Assembly: GCA_964496415.1 (NCBI GenBank)
Contig: CAZBZN010000001.1
Location: 9,819-73,818 of the forward strand
DNA length: 64,000 nucleotides
Source of the DNA: Candidatus Micrarchaeota archaeon
GTDB taxonomy: Archaea > B1Sed10-29 > JAJRYS01
Direction: 5' to 3'
A model generated the notes under the pieces. It worked only from the letters and a program-made list of their open reading frames with translations. It did no database searches and was not told the origin of the DNA. Shown piece by piece: positions 1 to 64,000 of this stretch. Positions within the stretch are counted from its first letter, which is position 1; each line of letters starts with the position of its first letter. Position numbers and translations under genes: made by a program.

Positions 1-382
1 CCTTTTGCTTTAGGAAGTTCTTTTTCCTTAACAATTATCTTTGTTTCTATTTCCTTAGCTATTGGCCTAAAATCAGTCCTCTCAACTTTGACTTCAATTA
101 TCTCTTTCACTTTTTCTTTTTTCTCTTCAAGAATTTCAGGAGTTATTATCGTAGAATCTGAGGAAAGAATCTTAGTCATTAGTTCATCAAAATCAGAGTG
201 CCTTCTTATGATTTCAAGAGCCTCTGGAGTGATTAAGTAACCTTTTTCAGTTATTTTTTTTATGAACTCATCCATTAGACCACTCTCTCCAGGCAGCCCG
301 CGGGCTTCGCACGCCTTCATTTCGCTGAACTGCCTTGTAAAAAACAAGGCTGTTAATTTTTGGAATGTCAAAGTATAAATTG

Positions 383-3124: not shown

Positions 3125-3814
3125 ATGAAGTACAGGTCATTAATCATTGCATTAGTGTTAAGTTCAGTTGTTTTAGCATCTTGTCAGGACTATGCAAAAT
3201 TAGCTGAAGAAAGAACACTTCCACCTTATCCTAATTATTTTGGAGCAGCTGGAGAATTTCAGCATGCTGCTGACTGCTATTACTCAATAGGTGAAGAAGC
3301 TTTAGCTAAAGAGTATTACGCAAAAGCAGCAGAGTATTATACTGTTGCGGTTACTCAGTTGGTTGAAGGCGGGGATAATTACTTGAGAGGAAAGAGTTAT
3401 GAGCTTGCCGGTGATTCTTATTACAAGGCAGGAATGATTTCACAAGCAATTCAGGCATATAACAAGTCTTTCACTGTTTTTTCATCAAATGGGTATGATG
3501 CTGAAGCGCAACAGGTAATGAAAAAACTAGAAGCTCTTACTAAAAGAGTTGACCTTTCTCCTTATGTTGGATTGATTTCTTTAACAGCATTATTTTTCAG
3601 CTTGTTTTCTTTAGTTTATGTCTGGAGTTATTCAAGAAAAAACCAGCAGCCGTTAGTAATAGAAAAAAAGATAATTAAAAGAGAAGTAGTTGAAAAACCA
3701 ATAAAAAAGATTGAATTTAAGAAGAAAGAAGAAGTTCCAGTAAAAAAGAGAGAAGTGATGAGTCCTAAAGAAAAGCTTGCTAAGAAGCTTAGGGAAAAAT
3801 ACATGCCTAAGTGA
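3125..3814 (+). CDS. membrane-anchored TPR-like repeat protein (putative lipoprotein)
   Basis: N-terminal signal peptide with LASC (lipobox-like). Tyr/Ala-rich TPR-like repeats. One C-terminal TM helix followed by a K/E-rich tail. Confidence 0.45.
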   Translation: MKYRSLIIALVLSSVVLASCQDYAKLAEERTLPPYPNYFGAAGEFQHAADCYYSIGEEALAKEYYAKAAEYYTVAVTQLVEGGDNYLRGKSYELAGDSYYKAGMISQAIQAYNKSFTVFSSNGYDAEAQQVMKKLEALTKRVDLSPYVGLISLTALFFSLFSLVYVWSYSRKNQQPLVIEKKIIKREVVEKPIKKIEFKKKEEVPVKKREVMSPKEKLAKKLREKYMPK

Positions 3815-5499
3815 GGCTGGTTGCTTTGAATTTTTTTGAAATAAAAAGCCATGACCTGGCTGCTAGGATAACAAAGCTTAAGACAAACCATGGGACAATA
3901 ACTACTCCTACGATTCTTCCAGTCATAAACCCAAAAGCACAGGTTATTCCTGCTTCTGAAATGAAAGAGTTCGGAGTAGAAGCAGTGATTACTAATGCGT
4001 ACATTCTTTGGAAGGACTTAAGAGAAGAAGCATTAGATAAAGGCGTGCATGATTTGATAGGGTTTAACGGTCCAGTGATGACTGACTCTGGAGCTTACCA
4101 GTTAATGGAGTACGGCGAGATAAGCGTAAGCAATAGGGAAGTAATCGACTTCCAGAAGAAGATAGGTGTTGATGTTGGAGTAATTCTCGACGTTCCAACA
4201 AGCAGCAGCGACGAAGAAGCAGTGAAAGCAAGCGTTGCAGAGACCATTACACGCGCAAAGGAAGCAAAGCAATGGGCTGATGATTCTCTTTTGTGGGCTG
4301 GGCCTGTGCAAGGCGGGACTAACTTAAAGCTGTTGAAGAAGTCTGCGATGGTCATGGATTCTCTTGGATATGACATCCTGCCAATTGGTTCTGTTGTTCC
4401 TTTGCTTGTGAAGTATGATTTCGCTTCAGTCGTGAGGATGATTAAGACAGTAAGAGAAACCACTGAAAAGCCTTTGCATTTGTTCGGCGCAGGTCATCCT
4501 ATGTTCTTTTCTTTTGCAGTAGCTCTTGGAATTGACTTGTTTGACTCAGCTGCTTATGCTTTGTATGCTAAGGAAGGAAGGTACTTGACTCCTCTTGGCA
4601 CGAAACACTTGTCAGAACTTAAAGAACTCCCTTGCTCCTGTCCAGTATGTTCTAACACTCCTTTAAAAGAAATGGACGAGGAGAAGCTTGCAAGGCATAA
4701 TCTTTTCGTAACAATGCAGGAGATAAGAACTGTAAGACAAGCTATAAGAGAAGGGGAATTGTTTGACTTGTTGTGCCAGAGAGCTGCTTCCCATCCTTCT
4801 CTTTACAAGGCAATGAAACAACTTGTCAAATACAAGGATTTCTTTGACAAAAGAGACCCCATTACTAAGAAGCACTTCTTTTACTCCTCTGAGTTTTCAA
4901 AGCACAGGGTAGAAGTAATAAGAGTCAAGGAAAGGCTTTCAAGAATAAAGTCAAAGCAAAAGCAAGACATAGGACTGTTCAAACAAGTTCCAATAACACT
5001 AACAGAATGCTATCCTTTCACTCAGTATGTTGACGGGGAGGAGAGAAAGCTGAAAAAAGCTCCAAATGGTTTTGAGAAGATAAGAGACGCAAGCTTGTAC
5101 TGGTTTGGAGTGAATTTGTTCAAGCCAACGGACACTGTAAAAGTGTCAAGAAGCACTGGGAAGATAAGAGCAGTGTACAGGAAAGGAGAGTTGTTAGCTG
5201 TTTTCAGAGCATCAGACTTTATGATAATGCTTCATGCTGCTTCAAGAGACCTGCATGAAAAAACAAGACCACCCGAACATAGAGTGATAGTAAGAAAAGA
5301 CGTTGCTGAATTCATCAAGCAAGGGAAGAGCGTGTTCGCAAAACATGTTATTAACTGTGGTAACATAGTGCCAGGCCAACAAGTACTGGTAGTCACAGAA
5401 GACGACGAGCTTTTAGCATCAGGAGACGCTTTGCTTAACTCTTCTGAAATGCTTGCAATGAAAAAAGGCCCTGCAGTAAGCGTGAGATGGCATGCGTAA
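3811..5499 (+). CDS. tgtA: archaeosine tRNA-guanine transglycosylase (ArcTGT) with C-terminal PUA domain
   Basis: N-terminus has the TGT fold (HGTITTPTILPVINP). Zn site CSCPVCS. About 560 aa with C-terminal PUA-like beta domains. Confidence 0.9.
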   Translation: MRLVALNFFEIKSHDLAARITKLKTNHGTITTPTILPVINPKAQVIPASEMKEFGVEAVITNAYILWKDLREEALDKGVHDLIGFNGPVMTDSGAYQLMEYGEISVSNREVIDFQKKIGVDVGVILDVPTSSSDEEAVKASVAETITRAKEAKQWADDSLLWAGPVQGGTNLKLLKKSAMVMDSLGYDILPIGSVVPLLVKYDFASVVRMIKTVRETTEKPLHLFGAGHPMFFSFAVALGIDLFDSAAYALYAKEGRYLTPLGTKHLSELKELPCSCPVCSNTPLKEMDEEKLARHNLFVTMQEIRTVRQAIREGELFDLLCQRAASHPSLYKAMKQLVKYKDFFDKRDPITKKHFFYSSEFSKHRVEVIRVKERLSRIKSKQKQDIGLFKQVPITLTECYPFTQYVDGEERKLKKAPNGFEKIRDASLYWFGVNLFKPTDTVKVSRSTGKIRAVYRKGELLAVFRASDFMIMLHAASRDLHEKTRPPEHRVIVRKDVAEFIKQGKSVFAKHVINCGNIVPGQQVLVVTEDDELLASGDALLNSSEMLAMKKGPAVSVRWHA

Positions 5500-5659: not shown

Positions 5660-6379
5660 TTATCTTTTTCTAGCAAATATGAAAAAGCCTGGAAAGCCAA
5701 GAAGCCCTTTCACACGAGCATATTTCTTGACTATCACTTCTTTGTTGTCAAACTGAATCCCACGTATGTCAAAGTAGTTAAGTGCTTCAAAAGCCCTCCA
5801 AACTGGTTTTATGCTGTCCATTACTGGGGAATAAACCCCAAAGAAGCCACCTGGTTTTAAGCAGTAGTCAAGAGCTTTCACTGCTCTTTCAGGTTCTTGC
5901 ATGTCAATGAATACTGCGTCAAAGAATTCTTTTCTAAGCTTTGCAGTTAACACGTCCTTGTTGTACAAGTGCACGTTTTTCAATCCTTTAAGGTTCTCTT
6001 TTGCTTTCTCATAGAACCTTTCTTCTTTTTCATAAGAGTAAACCTCTGCGCCTATCTGCGAGAAATAATAAGCAGTCCCGCCTGTTCCTGTTCCTGACTC
6101 AAGCACTTTTGAGCCTTTTTTTATGCTAAGCATTGCTGCTATTATTCCTGCATCATAAGGGTATATTGGTCTTGAAGCCATTTTGAAATTTTCAACTTGG
6201 TCCTGAATGCTTGACTCGTAGGCTAAGAACACATATCCTTTATGCGTTTTAACTTCTTTTCGTTTACCAACAGCTTTATTAAGCTCTCTGGTTTTAATAA
6301 CCCCGTAATGAGTGTTTATTAATTTGGGGGTTTTCCTTATCACGAGCTTGTTTCCATGAGCATCAATTAAGGTGTACAT
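5660..6379 (-). CDS. trmI: tRNA (adenine57/58-N1)-methyltransferase TrmI
   Basis: The SAM-binding motif VLESGTGTGG and overall layout match Gcd14/TrmI m1A methyltransferases. Confidence 0.75.
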   Translation of the reverse strand: MYTLIDAHGNKLVIRKTPKLINTHYGVIKTRELNKAVGKRKEVKTHKGYVFLAYESSIQDQVENFKMASRPIYPYDAGIIAAMLSIKKGSKVLESGTGTGGTAYYFSQIGAEVYSYEKEERFYEKAKENLKGLKNVHLYNKDVLTAKLRKEFFDAVFIDMQEPERAVKALDYCLKPGGFFGVYSPVMDSIKPVWRAFEALNYFDIRGIQFDNKEVIVKKYARVKGLLGFPGFFIFARKR

Positions 6380-7352
6380 AATGGGAATTTACGATTCAAA
6401 ACATTATAAACTATTACTATTGATTCCTATTACTATCTTAGTGTTTGCATTGTATTTTTCTACAAAAGTTGAGCCAGGCATAGACCTGCAAGGCGGGACT
6501 TTGGTTACTGTTTCTGCTGGCTCAGAGGTAAACGCAGATCAATTAAAGCAAGAGCTTGAGAAAAATTTTGAATTAGAAGATTTGAAAGTGAGAAGCATTA
6601 GTGGTGGAACAACAGGTGTTTATATTGAATTTAAAGGGGAGAAAAACTTGCTTGAAATGCAAAAGTTGATTAATTCAGGCAAGTATCATGAGCTTTCTTC
6701 TTACTGCGGTTATGACGTTAATTCAAAGGATGCTGCTGACAAGTGTTTTTCTCAGAAAAGAGAGGAATTTAAAAATGCTTTTGTAAAGCTTGTTTCAAGG
6801 GAGACTGGTGCTTCTTCAGATGCTTTTTCTATTCAGGAAGTAGGGCCTTCACTTGGCAAGGTGTTTTTGGACCAAGCAAGAAATGCTATAATAATTGCTT
6901 TTGTTTTAATCATTTTCCTAATCTTTTATTACTTCAGGACTCCTGTCGTCTCTTTTGCAGTAGCGCAGTCCGCTTTCTTTGATGTTCTTGTTGCTTACTC
7001 TTCTTTAGGTTTTTTAGGTATTCCATTATCATTATCAACAATCGCTCCTTTATTAATGCTTATTGGTTATTCTGTTGATACTGACATAATGCTTACTGAC
7101 TGGCTTATTTCAAGAAAAACAAAATCACCAACAGATAGGGCTTATAAAGCAATGAAAACTGGTTTGACAATGACTGGTACTACTCTAACAGCACTCACTG
7201 TAATGCTGTTGGTAGCTTATTATGCTCACATAATCACTATTATGAACATAGCTTTAGTGTTATTATTTGGATTGCTTGCTGACTTAGTAGGTACTTGGTT
7301 TACTAACGCAGTAATAATTTTATGGCATCTTGAAAAGAAGGTGAAAAAATGA
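6372..7352 (+). CDS. secF: protein-export membrane protein SecF
   Basis: N-terminal TM helix, GIDLQGGT motif and a C-terminal six-TM bundle. The archaeal secF-secD gene order is present. Confidence 0.8.
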   Translation: MYIMGIYDSKHYKLLLLIPITILVFALYFSTKVEPGIDLQGGTLVTVSAGSEVNADQLKQELEKNFELEDLKVRSISGGTTGVYIEFKGEKNLLEMQKLINSGKYHELSSYCGYDVNSKDAADKCFSQKREEFKNAFVKLVSRETGASSDAFSIQEVGPSLGKVFLDQARNAIIIAFVLIIFLIFYYFRTPVVSFAVAQSAFFDVLVAYSSLGFLGIPLSLSTIAPLLMLIGYSVDTDIMLTDWLISRKTKSPTDRAYKAMKTGLTMTGTTLTALTVMLLVAYYAHIITIMNIALVLLFGLLADLVGTWFTNAVIILWHLEKKVKK

Positions 7353-13793: not shown

Positions 13794-14753
13794 TTACCAC
13801 TCAACTTCATCAGTACGCCATCTTGGTTTTATGTCTATTTCAGGAAGTTTCTTTTTTTCAGTTAAGGCAATGACTCCGGCCCAAGCTATCATTAACCCGT
13901 TATCTCCACAGACTTCTTTTTTTGGAACTAAGAATTTTGCGTTGTGTTCTTCGCTCATCTTTTTAAGCATTTCCTGAAGTCTTTTGTTTTGAGCAACTCC
14001 ACCTGTTAGTATTACTTCTTTTTTTTCAGAATGCGCTAAAGCCCTCTCAGTAACTTCAACTAACATTGAAAAAATAGTTTCTTGGAAAGAATAGCATAAG
14101 TCTTCTATTTTTGCTTTTTTCTTTAAAGCAGCAGTTACTACTCCTGAAAATACGAGGTCCATTCCTTTCACGGTGTAAGGAAGAGGAATATATTCTTTTC
14201 CTTTTTTAGCAAGTTTTTCTATTTTAGGCCCTCCAGGAAAACCAATTCCTTTTTCTCTTGCAAATTTGTCAATAGCATTTCCTATGCCTATGTCAAGAGT
14301 TTCTCCAAATACCCTGTATCTTCCAGCTTCATACCCTATTATTTGCGTGTTTCCTCCTGAAACATAAACTGTTAGTGGGTCTTTCATTTTTCCATAGAGT
14401 TTTGCTATTTCAATATGAGCTATGCAGTGGTTTATCCCTATTAATGGTTTTTTGCTTTCTTCTGCTAGTTTTTTTGCTATTTTTATTCCTTCAAGCAAGC
14501 ACGGAGGAAGCCCTGGACCTATTGATATTGCAATACCATCTACTTCTTTGAGGGTTATTCCTGCTTTTTCCAGAGCAGAAGAAATCACTTCTTCACTTAC
14601 TTTTTTATGATGTCTTGCGGCGTCAGATGGGATTATACCCCATCCTTCTTTTGGCTTATAAATGTCTCTTTCGTTTGCTAGTTCTTTTCCTTTTTCAGTG
14701 ATTATTCCAACACCAAAAGTATGGGCAGTGCCTTCTATCCCAAGCACGATCAT
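13794..14753 (-). CDS. kae1: tRNA N6-adenosine threonylcarbamoyltransferase Kae1
   Basis: The [18 protein letters not shown]-terminus and the ASKH fold of 319 aa match the Kae1/TsaD family. Confidence 0.9.
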
Positions 14754-27626: not shown

Positions 27627-27661
27627 AATACCACTCAGTATTTTTAGTCGCTTGTTGCTTT

Positions 27662-27701
27662 CAGGCGATTGAGAACCACGTTAGTGGTTCGATGTCGCCT
27701 G
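27662..27701. repeat. HP element copy A (extended hairpin, L18e leader)
   Basis: caggcga-ttgagaaccacgttagtggttcgatg-tcgcctg. Outer 7-bp stem, internal loop, inner 7-bp stem gaaccac/gtggttc, GTTA loop. The outer stem differs from the other copies by compensatory changes. Confidence 0.6.
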
Positions 27702-27723
27702 CCCGCAAGCCGTATGCGGCTCT

Positions 27724-27762
27724 AGGGGATTGAGAACCACGTTAGTGGTTCGAACATCCCCT
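27724..27762. repeat. HP element copy B
   Basis: aggggattgagaaccacgttagtggttcgaacatcccct. Identical to the copies at 30277 and 63719. Confidence 0.6.
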
Positions 27763-27785
27763 GTCCGTAAACCGCACGCGGTTTA

Positions 27786-27923
27786 TGCAGGGGACGAGAT
27801 TTGAACTCGCGTGGGCACTAAGCCACAGGGCCCTCAACCCTGCCCGTTTTCCGGGAGGCCCCGCCTCTTATTACTTTTATTAACAGGAGGCAGGGGCCAC
27901 CGTCCAGGCTCCGGCACCCCTGC
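27786..27923 (-). tRNA. tRNA-Leu(GAG) with ~51-nt intron in the D-loop
   Basis: Minus strand. Acceptor GCAGGGG/CCCCTGC with A73. Anticodon arm CAGGG-TTGAGGG-CCCTG. 15-nt variable arm. T-arm GCGAG-TTCAAAT-CTCGT. It is collinear with the intron-less Leu(TAA) at 63802, apart from a GC-rich insertion between GCCTGGA and AAAACGG. Confidence 0.7.
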
Positions 27924-27990
27924 GTAGTTTTCATAGCATAGGGGTTGCGGGGAAGCTTTGCTTACCCAAGTACCCCTGCATAGTAATCCA

Positions 27991-30091: not shown

Positions 30092-30226
30092 TCATTCACC
30101 AGAATTTTTTATTTCCCTGTAGGTCACAGCCTTAGCGGCTCGCCAGGATTTGGTTTTTTATAACAAGTGTTATGATTTGTGAACTCTTTTGTTTATAAAC
30201 CTTATGGAAACAGCCGCACCACTGGG

Positions 30227-30275
30227 TTGAGGTCCGTAGGACCGAAGTCCTGTAAATGCAGGCTTTTTGAAGCCT
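30227..30275. repeat. E element (inverted copy), a hairpin-rich module in the S13 leader
   Basis: Reverse complement of 63638-63689, with a compensatory change gcaggctt/aagcctgc versus gcaagctt/aagcttgc. Confidence 0.5.
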
Positions 30276-30276
30276 T

Positions 30277-30315
30277 AGGGGATTGAGAACCACGTTAGTG
30301 GTTCGAACATCCCCT
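30277..30315. repeat. HP element copy C
   Basis: aggggattgagaaccacgttagtggttcgaacatcccct, 3' of the tRNA at 30340-30507. Confidence 0.6.
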
Positions 30316-30339
30316 GTCCGTAAACCGCACGCGGTTTAA

Positions 30340-30507
30340 CGCGGCGGGGGAGATTCGAACTCCCGTGCCCCGAAGGGCACCAGCTCTCCAGGCTCACCTC
30401 ACTTTGTTTAAGTTCACTTTTTAAGCAAAGTGAACTGGCGCAATACCATTGCACCCACAAGGGTGCAAACCAAATGGCTTGCCATTTGTGGTCTATGCGA
30501 CCGCCGC
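30340..30507 (-). tRNA. intron-containing pre-tRNA, most likely tRNA-Ser(GGA) with two introns (D-loop and anticodon stem)
   Basis: 168 nt, GC-rich. Acceptor GCGGCGG/CCGCCGC with G73. T-arm GGGAG-TTCGAAT-CTCCC. A class II variable arm TGCCC-TTCG-GGGCA. Joining ...GCGCCAG to CCTGGAGAGCTGG gives the stem CCAGC/GCTGG around the loop CTGGAGA. A D-stem GCA/TGC is separated by about 50 nt of hairpins. Confidence 0.45.
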
Positions 30508-30513
30508 ATGTTT

Positions 30514-31347
30514 TTATTTGATAACTTTTTCTGTTTTTATCATTTTTCCTTTTTTCGAATTTATTATTGTTTTTTTATCATAGAGAGCTGTTCCTATGGC
30601 TATAAGTTCTTGCTTTTCATTGATTATGGCTATTGGTGATCCTTTTACTATGTGTCCTTTTAGTTCTATTATTCCTGATCTGAATACTGGCGCTCCTTTT
30701 AGTATGTTTTTTTCAGCAGTTTCTTTTACTATTGCTTTTGGCATTAGTTTTACAGCGTACTCTAAGGGTTTTATTACTTCTTTTAGTAGCTTTGGATTTT
30801 CTTTTTCTAATGCTACCGCGTCTTTTAGTTTTGTTATGGTAATACATTCTTCTTCAGTGAATGGTCCTGAGCGGGTTCTTCTTAGTTGCAGCATTGTTGT
30901 TTTTGTTCCTAAGACTTTTCCAAAGTCTTCAACTAATTTCCTTATGTATGTTCCATGCTGGCAGCTTACTCTGAAAAGATAGTAGTTTTTTTTCTTTTGA
31001 ATTAGTTCAAGCTCGTATATTCGTCTTATCCTTATTTTTTTCGAAACAGCTGAAAGTTCAGGTGGTTTTTGGTAGATTTTTCCAGTGAATTCTTTAAAAA
31101 GAGTGTTTATTTTTTCTTCAGGAATTTCTTCTTCTATTTTCATTAGGCAGACGTACTCTTTGTCATGTTTTTGCAGGTATTCTATTAGTTTTCTGCCTTT
31201 TCCTACTAGTATTGGCAGGACTCCTGTTACTTCAGGGTCAAGAGTGCCGCAGTGCCCTGCTTTTTCATTAAGGATTTCAGATACCCATTGAGTGACTTGG
31301 GCACTTGTAGGCCCTCTTGGTTTGTCAATTAAAATCAGAGCATTCAT
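30514..31347 (-). CDS. cbf5: tRNA pseudouridine synthase Cbf5/TruB with PUA domain
   Basis: LILIDKPRGPTSAQV...GTLDPEVTGVLPI catalytic motif. C-terminal PUA domain. Confidence 0.85.
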   Translation of the reverse strand: MNALILIDKPRGPTSAQVTQWVSEILNEKAGHCGTLDPEVTGVLPILVGKGRKLIEYLQKHDKEYVCLMKIEEEIPEEKINTLFKEFTGKIYQKPPELSAVSKKIRIRRIYELELIQKKKNYYLFRVSCQHGTYIRKLVEDFGKVLGTKTTMLQLRRTRSGPFTEEECITITKLKDAVALEKENPKLLKEVIKPLEYAVKLMPKAIVKETAEKNILKGAPVFRSGIIELKGHIVKGSPIAIINEKQELIAIGTALYDKKTIINSKKGKMIKTEKVIK

Positions 31348-48310: not shown

Positions 48311-49738
48311 TCATCCTTTAATACAGCCTATTGGTCTTACTCTTACTACTTTTTTAGCTAACCCGGCATTGTGCACTGCGTCAACTACTTCTGCTACGTC
48401 CTTGTAAGCTTCAGGAGCTTCTTCAGCTACTCCTGCGTAAGAATGTGCTTTAACTATGATTCCTTTTTCCCTTAGTCTGCGGATTATTTCCTCTCCTCTC
48501 CAGGAATGTTTTGCTTTTGTCCTGCTCATTCTTCTTCCACCGCCATGGCAAGCGCTTCCAAAAGTCTTACTGGTTCCGGTTTCTGTTCCAACTAATATGT
48601 AAGAGTATGTTCCCATGCTTCCTCCTATGAGTACTGGTTGTCCTACTTCCATGTAATCTTTTGGCAATTCTTTCCTGCCAGGACCAAAAGCTCTAGTAGC
48701 TCCTTTTCTATGAACATAAAGTTTTCTCTTCTCCCCGTCAACGTCATGCTCTTCTATCTTGCACGTGTTATGTGAGATATCATAAAGTGTTTCCACTTTT
48801 GCTTCTGGAAGTACTTTTTCAAAAGCAGTCCTTGCCAAGTGAGCTATTACTTGCCTGTTCGCTAACGCGCAGTTTATTCCAGCATTCATTGCACCCCAGT
48901 AATCCTGTCCTTCTTTTGATTTTATAGGAGCACATACGAGTTCCCTGTCCCTTATAGGAATCCCGTACTTTTTTGAAGCCTGCGCAAGGATTGGAAGGTA
49001 ATCCATTCCTATCTGATGCCCAAGAGCTCTTGAACCACAGTGAAATGATATTAAGACATCTCCTTTTTCCACTTTGAACACTTTTGCTGTTTTTTCATCA
49101 AACACTTCATCAACTACTTGAATTTCTAAGTAGTGGTTTCCTGAACCAAGAGTCCCTACTTGCTTGTACTGCCTTTTTTTTGCTTTGTGTGATACTTTTG
49201 AAGCATCAGCTCCGTCAACTCTGCCGAATTCTTCTATGAATTCAAGGTCTCTTTTTGTCCCATACCCTTGTTCAACAGCCCAAACAGCTCCTCCTTCTAG
49301 CACTTCATCAATTCCCTGTTCAGTTAGCTTTATTTCACCAGTGCTTCCAAGACCAGCAGGTACTGTTCTAAACAATTCGTTTACTACCTCCTCTATTTTT
49401 TCCTTTACTTGTTCTTCTTTCAGGCCAGTCCTCATTGTTCTTACTCCGCAAGAAATGTCAAACCCTACTCCTCCTACTGAAAGTATTCCTTCATCTTCGT
49501 CAAAAGCACCTACTCCTCCTATTGGGAAACCGTACCCCCAGTGAGCGTCAGGCATTGCCATTGCTGCTTTAACAATGCCTGGAAGGCTTGCCACGTTCAT
49601 GAGTTGTTCTCTTACTTTTTCATCCATTTCTGTAACTAGTTTCTCGTCAGCGTAAATCCTTGCAGGAACATTCATTTCACCAGTTTTTTCAATTTCCCAT
49701 TCATAGTCACTTATCTTTTTCAAAGCTTTAATATCCAC
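48311..49738 (-). CDS. rtcB: RNA-splicing ligase RtcB
   Basis: GSACHGGGRRMSR...and metal-binding His motifs. 475 aa. Confidence 0.9.
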   Translation of the reverse strand: MDIKALKKISDYEWEIEKTGEMNVPARIYADEKLVTEMDEKVREQLMNVASLPGIVKAAMAMPDAHWGYGFPIGGVGAFDEDEGILSVGGVGFDISCGVRTMRTGLKEEQVKEKIEEVVNELFRTVPAGLGSTGEIKLTEQGIDEVLEGGAVWAVEQGYGTKRDLEFIEEFGRVDGADASKVSHKAKKRQYKQVGTLGSGNHYLEIQVVDEVFDEKTAKVFKVEKGDVLISFHCGSRALGHQIGMDYLPILAQASKKYGIPIRDRELVCAPIKSKEGQDYWGAMNAGINCALANRQVIAHLARTAFEKVLPEAKVETLYDISHNTCKIEEHDVDGEKRKLYVHRKGATRAFGPGRKELPKDYMEVGQPVLIGGSMGTYSYILVGTETGTSKTFGSACHGGGRRMSRTKAKHSWRGEEIIRRLREKGIIVKAHSYAGVAEEAPEAYKDVAEVVDAVHNAGLAKKVVRVRPIGCIKG

Positions 49739-49757
49739 AGGACTCCCTCCTTAAGAC

Positions 49758-50174
49758 TCATACGTCAACAATGCATTGAGCAATCCAATGATCATTTGTT
49801 TTCTCAACTTTTACCTGTGAGTAAGTGGCTGCTTTTACTTCTGTCTTAGGATGGTGCTTTTCAGGGTTAAATTCTTCTCCGAGAGCGATAGCGGTTAGTT
49901 TGTTATCGTTTATGGTTACTTTAAAATCTTTGAAGACAATTCCTTCTAAGTCCATTTCTGTAAGCAGCTCGTTGAGGAATGATACGAGAAGACTTTCAAG
50001 GTCTGTTGACTCGCAGGTTATTTTTATTTCTTTGCAGGGGGTTATGTTTTCTAAGTCAAACATTATTGAAAACATTGCCTTGGCACATTCAGTAAAAGCT
50101 TCTTCAACTGTTTTTCCAATTCCTCTTACTCCTATGTCAGCAGTGTGTTCAAAAGTTTCGAACAACTTACTCAC
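49758..50174 (-). CDS. archease (RtcB activator)
   Basis: FEHTADIGVRGIGKT...EVKAATYS is the archease signature. Located upstream of rtcB. Confidence 0.85.
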   Translation of the reverse strand: MSKLFETFEHTADIGVRGIGKTVEEAFTECAKAMFSIMFDLENITPCKEIKITCESTDLESLLVSFLNELLTEMDLEGIVFKDFKVTINDNKLTAIALGEEFNPEKHHPKTEVKAATYSQVKVEKTNDHWIAQCIVDV

Positions 50175-63511: not shown

Positions 63512-63639
63512 CGCCCCAGCCGGGATTTGAACCCGGGTCTCGGCCTCGACAGGGCCGAATCCTAGACCAATCTTCCACCTTTCTCAAGTTTTCTTTGGTG
63601 CAGCTTTCTTCTTAAGAAAGGTGCCTAGACTACCGGGGC
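63512..63639 (-). tRNA. tRNA-Asp(GTC) with ~55-nt AT-rich intron in the D-arm
   Basis: Minus strand. Acceptor GCCCCGG/CTGGGGC with G73. Anticodon arm CGGCC-CTGTCGA-GGCCG. T-arm CCGGG-TTCAAAT-CCCGG. The D region is interrupted by gcacctttcttaagaagaaagctgcaccaaagaaaacttgagaaaggtggaagattg, flanked by GTCTAG direct repeats. Confidence 0.65.
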
Positions 63640-63689
63640 AAGCTTCAAAAAGCTTGCATTTACAGGACTTCGGTCCTAACGGACCTCAA
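63638..63689. repeat. E element (direct copy), a hairpin-rich module at the tRNA-Asp 5' flank
   Basis: gcaagcttcaaaaagcttgc plus aggacttcggtcct, with an alternative pairing ggtcctaacggacc. It is the reverse complement of 30227-30275. Confidence 0.5.
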
Positions 63690-63718
63690 TCCAGTATCCG
63701 TGAGCCGTATGAGGCTCT

Positions 63719-63757
63719 AGGGGATTGAGAACCACGTTAGTGGTTCGAACATCCCCT
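63719..63757. repeat. HP element copy D
   Basis: aggggattgagaaccacgttagtggttcgaacatcccct, 3' of tRNA-Leu(TAA) after two GC hairpins. Confidence 0.6.
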
Positions 63758-63801
63758 GTCTGCCAGCTGCACGCAGCTGTCCGCAAGCCGCGCGCGGCTT
63801 A

Positions 63802-63886: not shown

Positions 63887-63946
63887 GTAGTTTTCATAGC
63901 ATAGGGGTGCCGGGAGAGCTATGCTTGCCCGAGCACCCCTTTGAAG

Positions 63947-64000
63947 TCCCGCCGGGGAGATTCGAACTCCCGATCCCCCGGTGACAGCACCCTTTTGCTG
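63947..64000 (-). tRNA. partial tRNA-like 3' portion truncated by window edge
   Basis: Minus strand ...GGGAG-TTCGAAT-CTCCC-CGGCGGG-A. The 5' part lies beyond 64000, so identity is unresolved. Confidence 0.35.

Follow-up and report, generated by a model that had tools for sequence, protein, structure and literature searches.

The 64-kb window (the whole stretch of DNA analyzed here, 64,000 nt in length) very probably contains a functional gene for tRNA-Ser(GGA), belonging to a DPANN archaeon that is probably one of the Micrarchaeota. Judged from its sequence, the gene would be interrupted by two protein-spliced BHB introns, namely one of 44 nt after G15 and one of 42 nt at position 30/31. Its three exons are colinear and lie in order on one strand, the minus strand, within 168 nt. 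The gene and its parts are as follows.

30340..30507, minus strand: complete pre-tRNA-Ser(GGA) gene, 168 nt (sequence, fold z-score, ARAGORN on the spliced product)
30493..30507, minus strand: exon 1, 15 nt (GCGGCGGUCGCAUAG), with the acceptor 5' strand, U8, C9, the D-stem 5' strand, and A14-G15 (BHB scan, ortholog alignment A1)
30492..30449, minus strand: putative intron 1, 44 nt (nt 16-59), in the D-loop after G15 (top-ranked BHB in the scan)
30435..30448, minus strand: exon 2, 14 nt (UGGUAUUGCGCCAG), with the D-loop G18-G19, the D-stem 3' strand, G26, and anticodon-stem positions 27-30 (BHB scan, ARAGORN, alignment A1)
30434..30393, minus strand: putative intron 2, 42 nt (nt 74-115), in the anticodon stem at 30/31 (BHB scan)
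30340..30392, minus strand: exon 3, 53 nt, with C31, the anticodon loop, the anticodon-stem 3' strand, the 15-nt variable arm, the T-arm, the acceptor 3' strand, and G73 (sequence, ARAGORN)

The tRNA-Ser(GGA) gene

Read from 30507 to 30340, the GC-rich stretch starts with G1 (30507) and ends with the discriminator base G73 (30340), and CCA is not encoded. The acceptor stem counts 7 bp (GCGGCGG/CCGCCGC, followed by G73), the T-arm reads GGGAG-UUCGAAU-CUCCC, and the variable arm, 15 nt in total (UGCCCUUCGGGGCAC), forms the stem GCCC-UUCG-GGGC. All of these elements had been named in the original prediction of a 168-nt GC-rich pre-tRNA, and all are present when the minus strand is read. The anticodon arm (CCAG^C-CUGGAGA-GCUGG, where a caret marks a splice junction here and below) has the 7-nt loop CUGGAGA, with the anticodon GGA after U33. 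In the unspliced gene, the D-stem halves GCA and UGC are separated by 53 nt.

The locus is an island of approximately 50-64% GC in a window of 36% GC. Its 168 nt fold with an MFE of -81.6 kcal/mol (z = -6.47), and none of 200 shuffled sequences was as stable. Nevertheless, neither ARAGORN nor Rfam calls a tRNA in the unspliced gene. No Rfam family reaches the gathering score at the locus or matches it at an E-value up to 10, and the only local match at permissive thresholds is a fragment the size of a T-arm (30348-30365). Once both introns are removed, the remaining 82 nt are called as tRNA-Ser(gga) by ARAGORN with all arms intact, the product being GCGGCGG-UC-GCA-UAGUGGUAU-UGC-G-CCAGC-CUGGAGA-GCUGG-UGCCCUUCGGGGCAC-GGGAG-UUCGAAU-CUCCC-CCGCCGC-G. 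Excision of 44 and 42 nt thus gives a mature length of 82 nt instead of the approximately 88 nt predicted originally. The predicted identity, namely tRNA-Ser with anticodon GGA, is borne out by this call and by the syntenic orthologs. The marks of a class II serine tRNA are all there (anticodon GGA, long variable arm, and G73), unlike in the tRNA-Leu genes of the same window, which have A73 and a different variable arm. A second, separately assembled contig (L001) carries the same gene with both inserts identical, so the inserts are not an artefact of one assembly.

Introns and their splicing motifs

The archaeal splicing signal consists of a 4-bp helix, 3-nt bulges on opposite strands, and outer helices on the exon and the intron side, with cleavage after the second base of each bulge (PMC7714728). 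We scanned every pair of positions in the 168 nt for such BHB motifs, without bias toward any junction. The folding of the junctions had been proposed as a check, and it returned one motif at each of them, the one in the D-loop being shifted by 3 nt from the boundary first drawn. The predicted introns in the D-loop and the anticodon stem thus stand in number and general location, while "at least two" becomes exactly two. The cut sites follow from the canonical geometry, which is supported here indirectly by its match with the junction of intron 1 as defined by orthologs.

The junction of intron 1 reads GCAUAG^ACCAC…GGGUGCAA^UGGUAU. Its central helix of 4 bp is formed between exon GCAU (nt 10-13; 30498-30495), made up of the D-stem 5' strand and U13, and intron GUGC (nt 54-57; 30454-30451). 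The two bulges of 3 nt are AG^A (30494-30492) and AA^U (30450-30448). On the intron side, the motif is closed by 6 Watson-Crick pairs (CCACAA:UUGUGG), and on the exon side by a weak helix of C9-G61, U8·G62, and additionally G7·U63, of which one pair is Watson-Crick. With H = 4, h = 3 (2-3 pairs), and h' = 6, this motif ranked first of all in the scan. When the intron was shuffled with the exons kept fixed, 7 of 200,000 shuffles matched the motif quality at the junction.

For intron 2, cuts at 28/29, 29/30, and 30/31 would yield an identical mature RNA owing to a repeated AG, and the BHB geometry picks 30/31. Here, the central helix of 4 bp joins exon CGCC (nt 68-71; 30440-30437) to intron GGUG (nt 110-113; 30398-30395), flanked by the 3-nt bulges AG^U (30436-30434) and AG^C (30394-30392). 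The intronic helix is long (8 Watson-Crick pairs, UCACUUUG:CAAAGUGA). The exonic helix is limited to 1 bp (G67-C117), leaving the 3' splice site in a poorly closed bulge, and because of this single pair, the motif (H = 4, h = 1, h' = 8) is to be regarded as relaxed. Its quality was matched at the junction by 0 of 200,000 intron shuffles with fixed exons. The motif lies at the junction …GCGCCAG^CCUGGAGAGCUGG, exactly where the removal of about 42 nt had been predicted, and it defines an intron of 42 nt.

The motifs of introns 1 and 2 use separate nucleotides and can coexist. A strict hBHBh' motif needs at least 2 Watson-Crick pairs on the exon side, and neither motif here is strict in the textbook sense (PMC7714728). 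Relaxed BHB motifs are cleaved by ε2 and (αβ)2 endonucleases (PMC3239211).

The three hairpins that had been pointed out, namely two perfect ones in the D-loop and a third across the anticodon-stem junction, are all present in the sequence. None of them is the splicing signal; they are alternative pairings, of which the second D-loop hairpin (UUGCACCC/GGGUGCAA) is in competition with the BHB of intron 1, and the hairpin GUUCACUUU/AAAGUGAAC with the BHB helix UCACUUUG/CAAAGUGA of intron 2. In the folding model at 37 C, the structure without BHB motifs reaches -81.6 kcal/mol and the BHB-constrained one -64.8 kcal/mol, a difference of 16.8 kcal/mol, and at 60-75 C the non-BHB fold is still modeled as approximately 8-10 kcal/mol more stable than the BHB conformer. 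In the fold preferred by the model, both D-loop hairpins are formed and intron 2 makes a long duplex. The enzyme must therefore capture the active BHB conformer, unless this conformer is favored in ways that lie outside the folding model.

Two other arrangements were considered and rejected. A three-intron model, in which the two D-loop hairpins are introns around a GGUU exon, has no BHB at either of them, loses A21, and disagrees with the orthologs. An alternative BHB candidate (intron nt 81..122) would remove the anticodon loop.

Orthologous loci and intron history

The position of the gene is conserved, and the anchor for synteny is its upstream neighbor.

30514..31347, minus strand: Cbf5 gene, stop codon 6 nt upstream of tRNA-Ser(GGA)

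In the window, tRNA-Ser(GGA) sits between Cbf5 and the S13-S4-S11-RpoD genes, upstream of the latter. Orthologous loci were obtained through homologous proteins and their encoding contigs, from relatives whose Cbf5 is 57-62% identical; a contig scan with Cbf5 as the query gave bacterial TruB loci only and no close relative. The nearest named Cbf5 homologs are from Candidatus Micrarchaeota, and the nearest named homologs of this one protein point to a DPANN archaeon, probably of the Micrarchaeota phylum. In the relatives, tRNA-Ser(GGA) directly follows Cbf5 (L018, L022/L023, and L024) or follows it after one inserted gene (L020/L021). S13 lies downstream, as in the window, with L018 as the exception. 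The intron content of these orthologs differs.

L018 tRNA-Ser(GGA): 0 introns (ARAGORN call; Rfam tRNA, 66.5 bits)
L024 tRNA-Ser(GGA): 1 intron, in the anticodon loop (the Rfam tRNA model confirms this copy)
L022 tRNA-Ser(GGA): 2 introns, in the anticodon loop and the T-loop
L020 tRNA-Ser(GGA): 3 introns, in the D-loop, the anticodon loop, and the T-loop

Including the window, the syntenic series thus runs 0, 1, 2, 2, and 3 introns, with four sites among the relatives. Where the D-arm lacks an intron, it reads GCAUAG-UGGCUAUUGC (L022), GCAUAG-CGGCAGUGC (L024), or GGCAGAG-UGGUAAUGC (L018) in alignment A1. These three are continuous across the intron 1 site, with GCAUAG-UGG/CGG at the predicted junction, and because the uninterrupted D-arms join there, the insertion point falls exactly between AG and UGG.

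The D-loop intron of L020 has an identical junction (GCAUAG^ and ^UGG), the same GGGUGCAA 3' end, and the same 4-bp GCAU:GUGC central BHB helix as intron 1 of the window. It has no counterpart of the UUGCACCC/GGGUGCAA hairpin. What the window and L020 introns conserve is the splicing signal, not the hairpin.

The intron 2 site is uninterrupted in all orthologs (CCAGCCUGGAAAGCUGG), and the window exons joined over it (GCGCCAGCCUGGAGAGCUGG) equal the ortholog sequence except at position 37. Among the loci seen, the 30/31 intron is therefore specific to the lineage of the window. A BLAST search with both window tRNA-Ser introns against all fetched loci returned no paralogous introns.

Alternative interpretations

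The choice of the D-loop junction deserves some attention, since the original prediction kept ACC in the exon and thereby removed about 41 nt. With ACC (or AC) retained, the same gene would have an intron of approximately 41-42 nt, a mature RNA of 84-85 nt, and the D-loop UAGACCUGGUAU. ARAGORN, being insensitive to D-loop length, calls these versions as tRNA-Ser(gga) too, and the resulting loop resembles AGCCUGGUA D-loops of Crenarchaeota. We nonetheless hold this junction to be very improbable: no BHB was found for it in the scan, where one forms for the 44-nt version only, and the orthologs' uninterrupted D-arms (GCAUAGUGGCUAUUGC) fit only that version as well. Relatives without a D-loop intron read GCAUAGUGG and GCAUAGCGG, without ACC, and the homologous intron of L020 is bounded by GCAUAG^ and ^UGG. 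The mature D-arm is accordingly predicted as …GCAUAGUGGUAUUGC… for the 44-nt junction, as opposed to …GCAUAGACCUGGUAU… or …AGACCUGG… for an ACC-kept one. Apart from this 3-nt correction of a boundary, the earlier interpretation is supported.

Slightly less probable still is a tRNA-Ser pseudogene, in which the two small insertions are never removed and a functional copy resides elsewhere in the genome. Such a reading could draw on the MFE fold, which shows no BHB motifs, and on the short repeats that proliferate beside tRNA genes in this genome; neither insert, however, resembles the repeat modules. Furthermore, all exon stems are intact, the exons are nearly identical to those of the orthologs at a conserved syntenic tRNA-Ser(GGA) site, a homologous intron is retained in a relative (L020), and both inserts carry a 4-bp helix and 3-nt bulges placed to restore the tRNA (p < 1e-4 each). 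Archaea are known to carry group I introns (PMC6125680), and the unspliced DNA lacks an Rfam tRNA match, which leaves room for a group I intron in a tRNA gene, for a split or permuted gene, or for a structured RNA that is no tRNA and just has tRNA-like ends, as the original prediction had allowed. All of these are extremely improbable. No other Rfam family matches the locus at an E-value up to 10, and T-arm fragments are the sole local matches above background. Three colinear exons on one strand, joining to a full cloverleaf, argue against a split or permuted gene. Self-splicing group I and II introns measure hundreds of nucleotides and have a conserved catalytic core, whereas the inserts of 42-44 nt are far too short, and no Rfam intron family is found at an E-value up to 10.

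Proposed splicing pathway and its machinery

For the preferred reading, that is, a tRNA-Ser(GGA) gene with BHB introns of 44 and 42 nt, the following pathway can be proposed. A precursor transcript of at least 168 nt would be formed, in which the 3' portion of each intron could pair with exon bases, intron 1 with the D-stem GCAU and intron 2 with CGCC of positions 25-28. Each exon-intron pairing can be drawn in the sequence as a 4-bp helix between two 3-nt bulges. Following the established mechanism of the family, the archaeal splicing endonuclease would cut after the second base of each bulge, and RtcB with Archease would then ligate exons 1, 2, and 3 into the 82-nt class II tRNA. Since the introns tie up positions 25-28 and the 5' strand of the D-stem in the precursor, the D-stem and the complete anticodon stem could form after splicing only. 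Finally, the ends would be trimmed and CCA added, the latter being assumed because CCA is not encoded.

The ligation partners are encoded in the same window, and RtcB, acting in trans, is expected to be the enzyme that joins the three exons.

48311..49738, minus strand: RtcB tRNA-splicing ligase (Pfam PF01139, 576 bits)
49758..50174, minus strand: Archease, RtcB cofactor (Pfam PF01951, 162 bits)

The two genes are adjacent (48311-50174, minus strand). Most of the predicted ORFs of at least 110 aa outside the ribosomal-protein clusters of the 64-kb window were covered, and no splicing endonuclease was found among them. The window also encodes an archaeosine tRNA-guanine transglycosylase (3811-5499, plus strand), a GCD14/Trm61-like tRNA methyltransferase (5660-6379, minus strand), and Kae1/TsaD (13794-14753, minus strand).

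Other disrupted tRNA genes nearby

Other tRNA genes in and just beyond the window are interrupted as well.

27923..27786, minus strand: tRNA-Leu(GAG), with a D-loop insert of approximately 52 nt at 27851-27902 (by comparison with the intron-less paralog tRNA-Leu(UAA))
63639..63512, minus strand: tRNA-Asp(GUC), with a D-loop insert of approximately 55 nt (no ARAGORN and no Rfam call)
63947-64000, minus strand, continuing into contig L030 (974-1087): tRNA-Tyr(GUA), which straddles the end of the window and has a canonical intron
L030 477-628, just beyond the window: tRNA-Thr(UGU), with a D-loop intron (UCCCUCGG…GUUGGGUGAAA) and a second insert beside the anticodon

For tRNA-Leu(GAG), ARAGORN gives a truncated call (27786-27867) and Rfam gives none. 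The BHB scan revealed no strict BHB for its insert at the junction implied by the paralog. Without its insert, tRNA-Asp(GUC) is a valid tRNA-Asp. The insert itself (GCACCUUUCUUAAG…GAAAGGUG…) is similar to one in the D-loop of a tRNA-Gly(CCC) on a related contig (L027), and this sequence likeness suggests a second intron family common to several tRNAs. The D-loop intron of tRNA-Thr(UGU), in turn, closely resembles the D-loop intron of the L020 tRNA-Ser.

Upstream of both tRNA-Leu genes lies a conserved, structured leader (27924-27990 and 63887-63946, both on the minus strand). The two leaders share an identical 3' end (UAUGCUAUGAAAACUAC), and their starts (GCAGGGGUACUUGGG and AGGGGUGCUCGGG) look like a degenerate tRNA-Leu 5' end.

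Trailer modules and a possible S13 leader

Directly 3' of tRNA-Ser(GGA), a further structured element is found, which is one copy of a mosaic repeat and is probably co-transcribed with the tRNA.

30221..30339, minus strand: structured GC-rich trailer, consisting of hp1 (30322-30337), hp2 (30278-30314), hairpin X (30261-30274), and a B3-like segment

The modules can be described as X (GCUUCAAAAAGC), hp1 (AAACCGCGUGCGGUUU), hp2 (GGGGAU…UCAAUCCCC, often enclosing GAACCACUAACGUGGUUC), and B3 (ACAGGACUUC…GUCCAGUG). Within the window, the same modules follow tRNA-Leu(GAG) (27661-27785, minus strand) and tRNA-Leu(UAA) (63641-63801, minus strand). On related metagenome contigs (L025-L028), they follow tRNA-Ile, tRNA-Val, tRNA-Pro, and tRNA-Gly and, in L027, a bona fide archaeal SRP RNA gene (155 bits). 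Eight hp1-hp2 copies are 93% identical. No modules were present at the orthologous loci of the relatives examined. The X+B3 block after tRNA-Leu(UAA) (63641-63700) is inverted with respect to every other copy, including the one at 30221-30274.

Comparison by eye with C/D boxes, H/ACA, K-turns, hammerhead cores, and BHB gave no fit for the modules, nor did hp2 fit a tRNA half or a permuted tRNA, even though GUUCGAAC resembles a T-loop. In scans of viral contigs with module k-mers, a 22-mer returned nothing, an 18-mer two matches that are probably due to chance, and a 15-mer noise only. The modules match no known RNA family or motif, and a literature search turned up no description of them. They could be a REP/MITE-like repeat, a signal for the 3' end of stable RNAs, or a co-transcribed small RNA. 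A more far-reaching and rather doubtful proposal combines them with the introns: the intron after G15 would belong to a BHB family that is now mobile among the tRNA genes of the lineage (near-identical introns are found in tRNA-Thr(UGU) of this genome and in tRNA-Ser(GGA) of another genus, and the one syntenic tRNA-Ser gene has 0 to 3 introns), and the modules would form a class of stable-RNA trailers, co-transcribed and not described before, that acts in the formation of 3' ends or in the mobility of introns or repeats.

Further downstream, a conserved motif (GGCGAGC-loop-GCNGUGACC; 30116-30147, minus strand) lies between the promoter-like box TTTATAAAC and the S13 start codon. It recurs in three relatives (L020 at approximately 6683-6712, L022 at approximately 6096-6125, and L024 at approximately 6008-6037). 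A K-turn can be drawn from it by eye, with GGC-UGU-GA-CC facing GG-C-GA-GCC, and it may act as a leader of the S13 operon to which a protein binds.

Comparison with known systems

The closest parallel is found in Candidatus Micrarchaeum acidiphilum ARMAN-2, where 56% of the tRNA genes are disrupted (Fujishima et al. 2011, PMC3239211) and where strict as well as relaxed BHB motifs are cut in vitro by the ε2 endonuclease (PMC3239211; for ε2, see also Hirata et al. 2012, PMC3488258). The gene described here shares with it the same broad lineage (as judged by the nearest named homologs), noncanonical sites, more than one intron per gene, and BHB motifs of both the strict and the relaxed kind. It differs in its sites, which are after G15 and at 30/31, whereas the ARMAN-2 examples shown are in the T-loop (53/54 and 59/60) or canonical (PMC3239211).

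Thermoproteales are described as having up to three BHB introns per tRNA gene, at sites including 29/30, 30/31, and the D-arm (Sugahara et al. 2007, 2008; examples in the review PMC4090602), and intron transposition has been reported for them, with similar introns in different tRNAs (Fujishima et al. 2010, as cited in the same review). Multiple BHB introns and similar introns across tRNAs (the D-loop introns of the L030 tRNA-Thr(UGU) and the L020 tRNA-Ser) are likewise seen here, in a phylum other than that of the Thermoproteales, which are Crenarchaeota with an (αβ)2 endonuclease. The site after G15 is not among the Thermoproteales examples given in the review, whose list is non-exhaustive (PMC4090602). 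Disruption of different arms in one gene is also known from a eukaryotic nuclear tRNA gene with several ectopic introns, but that gene depends on the eukaryotic endonuclease and shares no descent with the one described here.

Genes of this kind are thus already known. What is specific here is the combination of the after-G15 and 30/31 sites in a tRNA-Ser, together with the range of 0-3 introns at one syntenic gene among relatives.

Implications

The known working of BHB introns is unchanged by this gene, and its importance lies elsewhere. ARAGORN and the Rfam tRNA model miss tRNA-Ser(GGA), and within these 64 kb they also miss at least two further disrupted tRNA genes; an automated annotation would therefore report no tRNA-Ser(GGA), no tRNA-Asp(GUC), and no correct tRNA-Leu(GAG). 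Such falsely absent tRNAs distort inferences on completeness and codon usage for DPANN genomes. The gene, whose single precursor combines a near-strict with a relaxed BHB, also offers substrates that are ready for tests of endonuclease specificity, and the ortholog series is a compact natural case of rapid gain and loss of tRNA introns outside the Thermoproteales.
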